Positions 54,001 to 57,000 of a stretch of 60,442 bases of DNA are shown here, piece after piece (the stretch's first letter is position 1; each line of letters begins with the position of its first letter). Source of the DNA: a virus (lineage: Duplodnaviria; Heunggongvirae; Uroviricota; Caudoviricetes); the IMG/VR virus record IMGVR_UViG_2660238269_000009; one strand, given 5' to 3'. The position numbers are program-made.

Positions 54001-57000
54001 ATTCCTGGTATTAAGAACTGGGTTGATGTCATGACAAAAACCGCTGAAAACTCTTTTTTATTGCATGTTGAGGGAGATGCGATGACAAACTCTAACGGCC
54101 TCCCAACCATCCCCGACGGATCTACCGTGCTGATCACACCATGCTCAAGTAACATTAGAGAACTGGTGGGAAAAATAATCTTAATCCAATTGGAAGGAAC
54201 GCCAAACGTAACACTAAAAAAAGTTGCGATTGACGGACCAAACATCTATCTGTTGTCACTGAATCCGCTTTACAAACCCATCGAACTGAATGGTGGTTAC
54301 ACCATTAAAGGTAAAGTTTCACAAATACATCAATACTTAGACTGAGTCAGAACCCGCATTCATTGCGGGTTTTTTATGCCCTCAAATGTACCTTTTGCAA
54401 CATTGTATTGACTTGAAAGGTAACTCTTGTTACCTTAACAACATACCAACCCACCCCGCCCCACAGAACGCAGGGAAATACTTCGAGTTACCCGGCAGTG
54501 GTCAGGGGTTAAGTAGCCAGCCCGAGGCGTAAGAACATGACGGCAGGGTTCAACTTTAATAACTATGCAGCAGGTTTTTGTTCCGCTACCCCGGCGTTAA
54601 GGGGAAATGAGGTCAGCATGGATACTATCGATCTTGGCAACAGCGAATCTCTGGTATGTGGCGTGTTCCCCAACCAGGACGGTACGTTCACCGCGATGAC
54701 GTATACCAAAAGCAAAACGTTTAAAACCGAAAATGGTGCCCGTCGCTGGCTGGAAAGAAACTCAGGTGAGTGATATGGATTTCAACACAATCATGGAAAA
54801 GGCTTACGAAGAATACTTCGAAGGCCTTGCCGAAGGCGAAGAAGCCCTCAGCTTCAGTGAGTTTAAACAGGCGCTTTCCAGTTCGGCAAAATCTAACGGC
54901 TGATAAGCGAAACAGCACCGCGAGGAATCAGTATGCAGAAACGAGAACCCGTCATCATCGCGCCAGACTATACCGATGATGAACTTTATGAGTGGATGCA
55001 CCAGAAAATTAAGGCTGCGCAGGACCTGAAATGGGCCAATGAAGCCAGGGCTAAGCAGGCTGAAAATCTGTCCGCTCTGGAGCAGGATATCACCAGGCTG
55101 GAAAAAGCAGCGGCATTAAGCATTGCCAGAATGATTACATACCCGCGTTAATAGCTAACCAACGAGGCTAATAATGGAATTTAAAGATTTACCAATGCCA
55201 TTCCAGGAAATGGCAGCGAATGTGGTTCGCTCTCAACTGGCGACTCTTGACCTGAGTACCGTAGAAAAAGAAACCATCGACAATATATCTGGTAACGTAC
55301 GCCGAGCCTTTATCGGGCTGTACGAAGAGAAGCAGCTCTCTGATAACCAGGATTTACATGAAAAATACTTTCTGGAATTAATGGACATCATTAATAAAGG
55401 ATTTGGCTTGTTAATGAAAAAGAAAGGGATTCGAATAGCTCCCCTTGAAAATCATTTTACAGCAAGCAGTATTAATTCCTGTGATTTAAAGCATCACACA
55501 TCCGATGGGAAAGTTGAATCAAACAACAAAATATCAATTAATCATTAATTTATTCACAGGTGAGGTAGAGTGCGTGCGCCGGACACGGATAAGAATCCGG
55601 CACTGACAGTTTACTGAAAAGGATATATCCCTGAAAAGTCAGGGCATAACACGAAAGCGCCCGGAGAAGTTAGTCTCTCTGTATAGGTCGTCGTTAAATT
55701 TAATTCGATCGTGCGCTTCCGGTTGTGGCAATCCGCGAAATGGCGCGGCGGTAAGTATGGCGGGGTTATTCCTTCCCCCGTTGAGGACACCGGGTTGTCA
55801 GGTTGACCATACGCTTAAGTGACAACTCCGCTGCAACGCCCTCTGTTATCAATTTTCTGGTGACTTTTGGCGGTATCAGTTTTACTCCGTGACTGCTCTG
55901 CCGCCCTTTTTAAAGTGAATTTTGTGATGTGGTGAATGCGGCTGAGCGCACGCGGAACAGTTAAAACCAAAAACAGTGTTATGGGTGGATTCTCTTTATC
56001 CGGCGTTAATTGTTAACTGGTTAACGTCACCTGGAGGCACCAGGCACTGCATCACAAAATTCATTGTTGAGGACGCGATAATGGAAACGTTATTACCAAA
56101 CGTTAATACGTCTGAAGGTTGTTTTGATATTGGTGTTCTGCTCAGTAACCGGGAGTTTACTGAAGATGCCATTAATATGAGGAAATATGAGCCTTATCTG
56201 CTCAATGATAATTCCATACTTTCCCGAATTGCTCTTCTTGAACTTGGTATTTTCGGAGAACGTCAATGACTTCAGCATTTGCACTGATGATGACGGTTTT
56301 TCTTATAACGGGTGAATCACAGAATGTGATTACCGGAATTTATGCAAGTAAAGAATCCTGCCTCCAGGCAAGAGACGAGCAAAAAATTTCTGGTGAATGC
56401 CTCCCGCTAAAAAAAGTATCGCTGTACCTGAATAACGAAACACCGGCTGGATAACCCTCCAGCCATATTAACACCATACCAACGGATTAAAAATGCCAGC
56501 AATGGCAGGGATTCGTTCACCCTGAAATCTGTAATGAGGTTAAAACAAAATGAGTAAGGTCTTTATTTGCGCTGCTATTCCTGATGAACAGGCCATAAAA
56601 GAAGATAGCGCTGTTGCGGTGGCCACTGCCATTGAAGCTGGTGATGAGCGTCGCGCACGCGCAAAATTTCATTGGCAATTTCTGGAGCAATTCCCTGCAG
56701 CTCAGGACTGCGCTTATAAATTTATTGTCTGTGAGGATAAACCCGGCATACCCCGCCCTGCCCTCGATTCCTGGGATGCTGAATATATGCAGGAAAACCG
56801 CTGGGATGAGGCGTCTGCTTCCTTTGTCCCGGTTGAGACTGAATCCGATCCGATGAACGTCACTTTTGACAAGCTGGCCCCTGAAGTACAGAACGCTGTC
56901 ATGGTTAAGTTCGACACATGTGAAAACATCACCGTTGATATGGTTATTAGCGCACAGGAATTGTTGCAGGAAGACATGGCAACATTCGACGGACATATCG

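Follow-up and report, generated by a model that had tools for sequence, protein, structure and literature searches.

A prophage dicBF cell-division-inhibitor operon with one additional small gene in Escherichia coli

The dicBF operon is a known prophage operon for inhibition of cell division, and here we describe a copy of it that carries one additional small gene. It lies in a stretch of 60,442 nucleotides (nt), recorded as a virus of the Caudoviricetes (IMG/VR record IMGVR_UViG_2660238269_000009) and analysed here as a whole, hereafter called the window. The element is a lambdoid prophage adjoining ompW in Escherichia coli 2013C-3181, and the additional gene is an open reading frame (ORF) of 124 amino acids (aa) placed between ydfC and the untranslated leader of the DicF small RNA (sRNA). 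We consider it probable (roughly 0.7) that the block is an early-left, PL-type dicBF operon of an ompW-side lambdoid prophage, in which an accessory cistron is maintained under purifying selection.

The order ydfA-ydfB-ydfC, leader, dicF, dicB and ydfD was found with one more cistron between ydfC and the leader (Table 1), and every element of the Qin kil-region order given in the initial annotation, which had been made from the sequence alone, was at its claimed place. The DicF assignment was confirmed by the Rfam RF00039 covariance model, matched in full (model positions 1-52 of 52) at 75.8 bits as compared to a gathering score of 48 (E 6e-15), and DicB, whose gene follows dicF on the same strand, matched NCBIfam NF049927 at 114 bits (cut-off 100). 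The small ydfB-like gene of 42 aa that had been noticed is indeed present, its ATG lying 1 nt past the ydfA stop codon, and the ydfD-like gene overlaps the dicB stop codon by 4 nt. Between the 124-aa ORF and DicF are 306 nt of untranslated sequence, and the leader is intact downstream of the extra ORF; its conservation was also seen in a multiple alignment with K-12, AVS0501 and O157. The gene of a LexA/cI-type repressor is located directly upstream of the operon on the same strand, and an intact exonuclease gene follows in the same direction of transcription toward xis and int. The exoribonuclease domain occupies the C-terminal 180 residues of the 823-aa exonuclease, and Pfam gave no match for the other ~640 residues. 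The coordinates of all genes of the block equal those of the RefSeq annotation of NZ_CP027312.1 (E. coli 2013C-3181), to which the searched stretch (54350-56520, 2171 nt) is 100% identical. Inhibition of cell division by DicF and DicB, on which the initial annotation had relied, is established for K-12 (PMC5069750).

Alignment to the dicBF operon of K-12 Qin, which has the same gene order and strand, revealed similarity beginning only at 54580, with 96% DNA identity over 54580-55171 and 92% over 55555-56185, the latter covering the leader, DicF and the first ~35 codons of dicB. The intervening 383 nt (55172-55554) are replaced by 22 nt in K-12, and the ORF is absent there. This cassette corresponds approximately to the ATG-to-stop extent of the ORF, which it exceeds by only 2 nt on the ATG side and 6 nt on the stop side. 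Since DicF was confirmed by the covariance model and the ORF is absent from K-12 Qin, the earlier reading of an extra gene with its own ribosome-binding site (GAGG, Table 1) is supported. DicF departs from the K-12 sequence by a single substitution, G to T at 55865, which falls in the 5' single-stranded part; in K-12 this part pairs with xylR (PMC5069750). At the protein level K-12 YdfB is 98% identical, DicB 63% and YdfD 44%. A mosaic junction lies inside dicB at ~56185 (~codon 35): the 5' part is K-12-like DNA, and the C-terminal half of dicB together with the downstream ydfD-like gene is an allele other than that of K-12.

In K-12 the operon is under DicA/DicC, whereas here a LexA/cI-type repressor and a divergent Cro-like gene are present, and no DicA/DicC immunity pair was found upstream of the operon by Pfam, RefSeq annotation or alignment with K-12. 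The exonuclease gene of K-12 is an IS2-truncated pseudogene and its integrase is truncated, while exonuclease, excisionase and integrase are all intact in the present prophage. Because of the LexA/cI-type repressor in place of DicA, the ompW neighbour and the diverged DicB and YdfD, the block does not belong to Qin itself. Occurrence of dicBF loci in several prophage contexts, together with non-conserved genes, was reported in 2016 (PMC5069750).

The 124-aa ORF is a real protein-coding gene under purifying selection. The allele sample comprised 80 IMG/VR loci with a full-length copy and the window, i.e. 81 copies, among which 35 distinct alleles were found, all 35 with intact 375-nt frames ending in TAA. 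In the annotated frame the pooled Nei-Gojobori ratio of nonsynonymous to synonymous substitution rates (dN/dS) over these alleles was 0.26, a pairwise estimate on related, non-independent alleles that serves as an indication and not as a formal test; by segment it was 0.19 for codons 1-55, 0.29 for codons 56-90 and 0.30 for codons 91-124. In four other frames dN/dS ranged from 0.71 to 1.95, and the antisense frame with common third positions gave 0.34, as expected because its third codon positions coincide with those of the sense frame. A 52-aa antisense ORF (55233-55391, minus strand) was considered and rejected, two of the three antisense frames in which it could lie giving 0.71 and 1.95 and the third being the one with 0.34.

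The 124-aa protein is predicted to be soluble, having an isoelectric point of 5.9 and no hydrophobic segment. Its match to phrog_6937 spans the whole protein and the whole profile (5.7e-78, positions 1-124 of 124 in both), and its N-terminus also matches phrog_1363, phrog_2151 and phrog_9419 over residues 1-55 or 1-63. Among 1.84 billion representative proteins, an exhaustive search with a HMMER profile identified 49 clusters (50% identity), all of the same small family, with lengths from ~30 to 208 aa, nearly all of which share only about residues 1-55. This N-terminal domain of ~55 residues extends from MEFKDLP to LYEEK, and F3, K4, D5, L6, P7, Q11, A14, A15, K32, V42, R43, F46, L49 and Y50 are nearly invariant in 34 diverse sequences. 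Variants of 106, 109, 122, 133, 135 and up to 208 aa keep residues 1-55. The domain is joined to at least three unrelated C-terminal modules, represented by the 124-aa, 133-aa and 122-aa forms, and the 106-aa and 109-aa forms are truncated versions of the 124-aa type, which itself has an invariant C-terminal ISINH motif. Since the C-terminal modules of the paralogues match other PHROG families that do not have the N-terminal domain, the domain shuffling is real. The taxonomic range is essentially Escherichia, with few distant matches to the N-terminal domain elsewhere.

AlphaFold2 run with 14 close homologues predicted three helices at moderate confidence, and with 34 diverse members it predicted a hairpin of helices 8-23 and 32-55 with a predicted local distance difference test score (pLDDT) of 90-94. 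Searches for function by similarity gave no usable match to the 124-aa protein in Pfam, NCBIfam or PADLOC: the single Pfam match was sub-threshold (VLPT, 16 bits against a cut-off of 27), and no defence profile of PADLOC-DB matched at E up to 1. The best sequence-profile match in the PDB had an E value of 0.061, and Foldseek returned no significant fold match (best E 0.68 in BFVD and 1.4 in PDB). No informative domain was present in any of the larger family members tested. Full-text searches for the gene, its accessions, the PHROG identifiers and the peptide MEFKDLP gave no match in the literature.

The narrow family, the lack of an assigned function and the predicted disorder of the tail would suit a non-functional remnant or a chance frame, in which case the RNA would be what matters, for example as a longer 5' leader altering DicF processing. 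We consider this highly improbable, given that all 35 alleles are intact, that frame-specific purifying selection reaches into the tail, that the Shine-Dalgarno sequence is good and the N-terminal domain is predicted with confidence, and that the conserved leader of DicF has been left undisturbed, with the same start as in K-12 (55555 here).

The place of the gene within the operon was consistent among the 80 IMG/VR loci. Counted from the ydfC start, the distance to the ORF start is 241 nt (22 nt from the ydfC stop), and in operons without ydfB and ydfC it is 164 nt from the ydfA start; the ORF is always ahead of the region holding the sRNA. In 47 of these 80 loci DicF was detected farther downstream, its position being +679 to +682 or, in a divergent group, +918 to +923; dicB follows at ~+900, or at ~+1780 where a Rha-family gene is inserted. 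A scan of 54300-56600 for the sigma-70 consensus detected three promoter-like sites as compared to 3.9 expected by chance, a single such site at 55148-55175 scoring 9/12, and no plus-strand terminator was found in the same stretch. A hairpin with a T-run, read by eye at ~54351-54376 as a terminator after the repressor gene, was not reported by the scan and was set aside. Because the ORF has its own Shine-Dalgarno sequence, a gap of 22 nt to ydfC and no promoter or terminator signal, the simplest reading is that it would be a translationally independent cistron of the operon and not an autonomous moron.

A classical moron, transcribed independently while the prophage is repressed and useful to the lysogen, as in superinfection exclusion or defence, was weighed against this reading. 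The G+C content of the ORF (37.6% as compared to 48.7% in the flanks), the tight boundaries of the cassette and the presence or absence of the slot among otherwise similar operons are all features of such genes, and the neighbouring DicB is said, in work by Ragunathan & Vanderpool of 2019, to protect against some phages. However, the consensus scan gave no promoter signal above chance and no plus-strand terminator after the ORF; the ORF has the orientation of the operon, lies close behind ydfC and offers only a Shine-Dalgarno sequence; PADLOC gave no match; and the operon members dicB and ydfD, taken together, are similarly low in G+C (39.8%). We therefore regard a moron as quite unlikely.

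Related slots are occupied in other prophages. In ompW-integrated prophages of Shiga toxin-producing and enterohaemorrhagic E. coli (PPompW; O157:H7 RIMD 0509939) and in AVS0501, the position after ydfC holds the same N-terminal domain, and the order ydfC, leader, dicB, DUF1482, exonuclease is the same as here. In O157 and PPompW the slot is filled by a 135-aa paralogue (phrog_1363) whose likeness is limited to the first ~43-59 residues, and in AVS0501 by a 106-aa form without the tail. In O157/PPompW and in AVS0501 a small convergent antisense gene of 77 or 91 aa follows, which is absent here. Convergent genes of this kind follow the paralogues in loci L003 (4123-4398, minus strand, 91 aa), L004 (2886-3119, minus strand, 77 aa) and L005 (2982-3155, minus strand, 57 aa); the 3' ends of gene and paralogue overlap in L003 and L004 and are ~80 nt apart in L005. 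Only the 77-aa product matches a PHROG (phrog_10348), and none of them matches Pfam. The 124-aa form in the window is without such a partner.

In some loci, among them that of O157 (L004), the DicF-like sequence has a changed stem-loop and, unlike the one described here, falls below the Rfam threshold. In some prophages with the MEFKDLP slot, isrK and the C4 antisense RNA, followed by a Rha-family regulator, replace DicF ahead of dicB (Table 1). With DicF replaced or changed in some loci, the sRNA position of the operon varies as well.

ORF16 of the O104:H4 Stx2a phage P13374 and its relatives (phrog_1363) has the hairpin, with MEFKDLP or MQFKDLP, at 46-48% identity over residues 1-50. It is likewise in the early-left region of a lambdoid phage, but it carries another C-terminal module, its neighbours are a DUF2303 gene on one side and ea22-like genes on the other, and the vicinity contains no dicBF genes. 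Kil, CIII, Ral, Ea10 and Gam of the lambda PL operon are small early-left proteins that act by binding host proteins. The analogy of the 124-aa protein with these accessory proteins is one of position and size only, and membership of that group is not claimed; no sequence or fold similarity to them or to any solved structure was detected.

Taken in this setting, the MEFKDLP N-terminal domain proteins might constitute an unrecognised modular family of lambdoid early proteins, in which a hairpin 'handle' is combined with interchangeable effector modules, sometimes alongside a convergent small gene; we hold this to be unlikely, and the same is to be said of its two corollaries. One is diversification in an arms race, e.g. 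in anti-defence or inter-phage competition, and the other is that the 124-aa ISINH form might be one specificity variant, with a function new to the dicBF operon.

The initial annotation called the gene extra, which is correct relative to K-12 but not otherwise, as it is common. Among 5426 complete E. coli genomes, 1357 contain DNA of the 124-aa ORF in some form (1601 places in all), and 723 of them have a place that covers at least 80% of it. The variant with the 124-aa gene is thus ordinary and is already catalogued (RefSeq, phrog_6937). For comparison, ydfC was found at 4302 places in 3083 genomes. The empty K-12 junction was detected at 80% coverage or more in 2665 of the 5426 genomes by a junction-specific probe made of 20 nt left and 68 nt right of the junction, for which such coverage requires a contiguous junction.

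Two empty loci, K-12 and TW08637, were read base by base and have the identical junction GCTAA|GGTT(A/G)GTAATTAAGGAG. Both retain 12 nt of the Shine-Dalgarno region of the ORF, with GAGG decayed to AAAG or GAAG, and the right flank of the empty locus is the sequence just past the start of the convergent antisense gene in the AVS0501 and O157 loci. Because of the one common junction, the decayed Shine-Dalgarno remnant and the right-flank match, K-12 has probably lost the cassette, rather than the present prophage having gained it. The empty state of K-12 resembles the product of one deletion event, which would have removed a sense-plus-antisense cassette and later have spread, an interpretation drawn from junctions and not from phylogeny.

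In the mechanism that we propose, by analogy with K-12, the operon would be silent in the lysogen, lying downstream of the LexA/cI-type repressor gene. Derepression would yield one polycistronic RNA comprising ydfA, ydfB, ydfC, the 124-aa ORF, the leader, DicF, dicB, the ydfD-like gene and the exonuclease gene, and reaching to xis/int. DicF would be cut from this RNA, its 3' end being set by its own terminator, and would repress ftsZ, while DicB would block division via MinC. The role of the untranslated region, RNase E processing, the biology of DicF and DicB and the repression of ftsZ are known for K-12, where DicF is released by RNase E and RNase III or by termination (PMC5069750). DicF release and ftsZ repression in the present prophage are presumed from the conserved leader and sRNA sequences.

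That the block is directed at the host would not by itself imply that the 124-aa protein acts on the host. Our suggestion for this protein is a tentative one, more doubtful than not: it may be a small early protein, soluble in the cytoplasm, that is produced along with DicF and DicB upon induction and acts by protein binding. The conserved hairpin could then be a common scaffold, a dimerisation surface or a contact to a partner, and the variable C-terminal half with the ISINH tail could determine which host protein or rival phage is targeted. Since operons without the 124-aa gene exist, the protein is likely to be dispensable for the function of DicF and DicB. DicB identity among the ORF-bearing loci ranges from 66 to 100%, so that ORF alleles show no linkage to a particular DicB allele, and some ORF-bearing loci have isrK, C4 RNA and the Rha-family gene instead of DicF, or DicF variants below the Rfam threshold. 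This free pairing with DicB alleles, together with the loci without DicF, speaks against the protein being a dedicated partner of DicF or of DicB.

The same evidence bears on the possibility that the 124-aa protein is a further cell-cycle or envelope effector, i.e. a division inhibitor or toxin like DicB, DicF and YdfD, since functional linkage to DicB or to a standard DicF would be looked for in such a case and no signal of it was seen. The sole point in favour of an effector is position, in one operon with two division inhibitors and a YdfD-like protein; early-left prophage operons are enriched for filamentation factors (PMC6206680). Against it, neither DicB nor Kil nor any family of Pfam or NCBIfam showed similarity to the protein, and the hit region of the filamentation screen in UTI89 lists only K-12-type genes (PMC6206680). 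We consider an effector of this type improbable.

Several points weigh against the reading of an early-left operon with a purifying-selected accessory cistron. Co-transcription and control by the repressor are deduced from the layout of the genes and from K-12, and the promoter scan addressed sigma-70 consensus sites only, the operon's own promoter not being among its matches. The low G+C content and sharp boundaries of the cassette would also fit an independently expressed moron, and the nature of the pooled dN/dS estimate has been stated above. In the AlphaFold2 model built with 34 diverse members the third helix (61-84) reached a pLDDT of ~58 and the tail (85-124) stayed below 50, partly below 40, so that the three-helix picture is only partly supported. 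The direction of change, deletion or insertion, is read from the 12-nt Shine-Dalgarno remnant and the junction of two empty loci.

To the knowledge of the dicBF operon itself little is added here, as it is well studied and the variant is already in RefSeq and PHROGs. Still, the reference operon of K-12 has probably arisen by deletion, and studies of DicF and DicB confined to K-12 miss an unstudied cistron that about one quarter of E. coli genomes carry at one or more loci of dicBF-type or related prophages. As a short and clean candidate, the 124-aa gene lends itself to tests for a new early function of prophages. The slot and the adjoining sRNA position (DicF, its variants, or isrK plus C4) mark this host-takeover operon as finely mosaic.

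Table 1. Features of the operon and of the surrounding prophage (positions in the window unless a locus is named)
Feature	Position	Strand	Evidence or remark
Cro/CI-family gene, divergent from the repressor gene	53364-53579	-	RefSeq
LexA/cI-type prophage repressor gene (HTH_3 and Peptidase_S24)	53629-54345	+	Pfam HTH_3 4.2e-17, Peptidase_S24 1.3e-16; RefSeq 'LexA family protein' WP_000103682.1, 238 aa; not DicA
ydfA, 51 aa, DUF1391, first cistron	54618-54773	+	Pfam PF07151 8.8e-28, phrog_751, RefSeq ydfA
ydfB, 42 aa	54775-54903	+	Translation, RefSeq ydfB; 41 of 42 residues as in K-12 YdfB
ydfC, 72 aa	54933-55151	+	phrog_1744 2.4e-39, RefSeq ydfC
Shine-Dalgarno GAGG of the 124-aa ORF	55164-55167	+	6 nt before the ATG
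Accessory ORF, 124 aa	55174-55548	+	RefSeq hypothetical protein WP_000394528.1, phrog_6937
Conserved untranslated leader of DicF ('long UTR', untranslated region, of the dicBF transcript)	55555-55854	+	92% identity to K-12 (over 55555-56185)
DicF sRNA with terminator stem, then T-run	55855-55906	+	Rfam RF00039
dicB, 62 aa, divergent allele	56081-56269	+	Pfam DicB PF05358 6.4e-37, NCBIfam NF049927
ydfD-like gene, 62 aa, DUF1482	56266-56454	+	Pfam PF07358 1.5e-14, phrog_1092
Exonuclease gene, 823 aa	56550-59021	+	Pfam Rv2179c-like 3'-5' exoribonuclease domain 2.5e-66
Replaced sRNA position in other loci	L005 3773-3961; L064 3965-4153; L077 5965-6150		isrK and C4 antisense RNA
Full STnc100 copy	37480-37692	-	Rfam 139 bits
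Full-length porin gene annotated ompC	15490-16644	-	Prophage cargo in the tail-gene cluster
Three tRNA genes (Ile, Arg, Arg)	41101-41352	-	Flanks 40504-42451
Two Q-family antiterminator genes	43736-44425 and 50286-50807	-	
Insertion sequence (IS) elements	972-3587, 10725-13141, 46332-47443		Two IS66-family and a frameshifted IS421
Cargo genes	47636-47962 (-); 6185-6325 (-); 43141-43542 (-); 37120-37455 (+)		

The remaining features of the prophage are minor to the operon. The spacer between DicF and dicB (55904-56113, plus strand) gave a sub-threshold match to Rfam STnc100, at 34.2 bits against a gathering score of 47, with an E value of 3.6e-5 that holds for a 2.3-kb search; the central GUCACCUGGAGGCACCAGGCAC hairpin is common with STnc100, the terminator is not, and the spacer is also conserved in K-12. 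At the end with int, xis and the exonuclease gene the element is intact, but as a whole it may be composite or partly defective. One of the IS66-family insertions is near the left end of the window, beyond the tail-fibre genes, and the other is in the tail-gene region. Upstream of the tRNA genes are genes for a Q antiterminator and a DNA methyltransferase, and this is the position of stx in Shiga toxin phages; no stx was found in the flanks of the tRNA genes, and only small hypothetical genes follow. The ompC gene is placed between the gene for minor tail protein L and another tail gene. The other cargo, of addiction or regulatory type, includes hokD with sok RNA (Rfam 117 bits) and, next to the tail-fibre genes, a second gene of the Hok/Gef family, as well as genes for a PemK/MazF-family toxin and an IraM-like anti-adapter.

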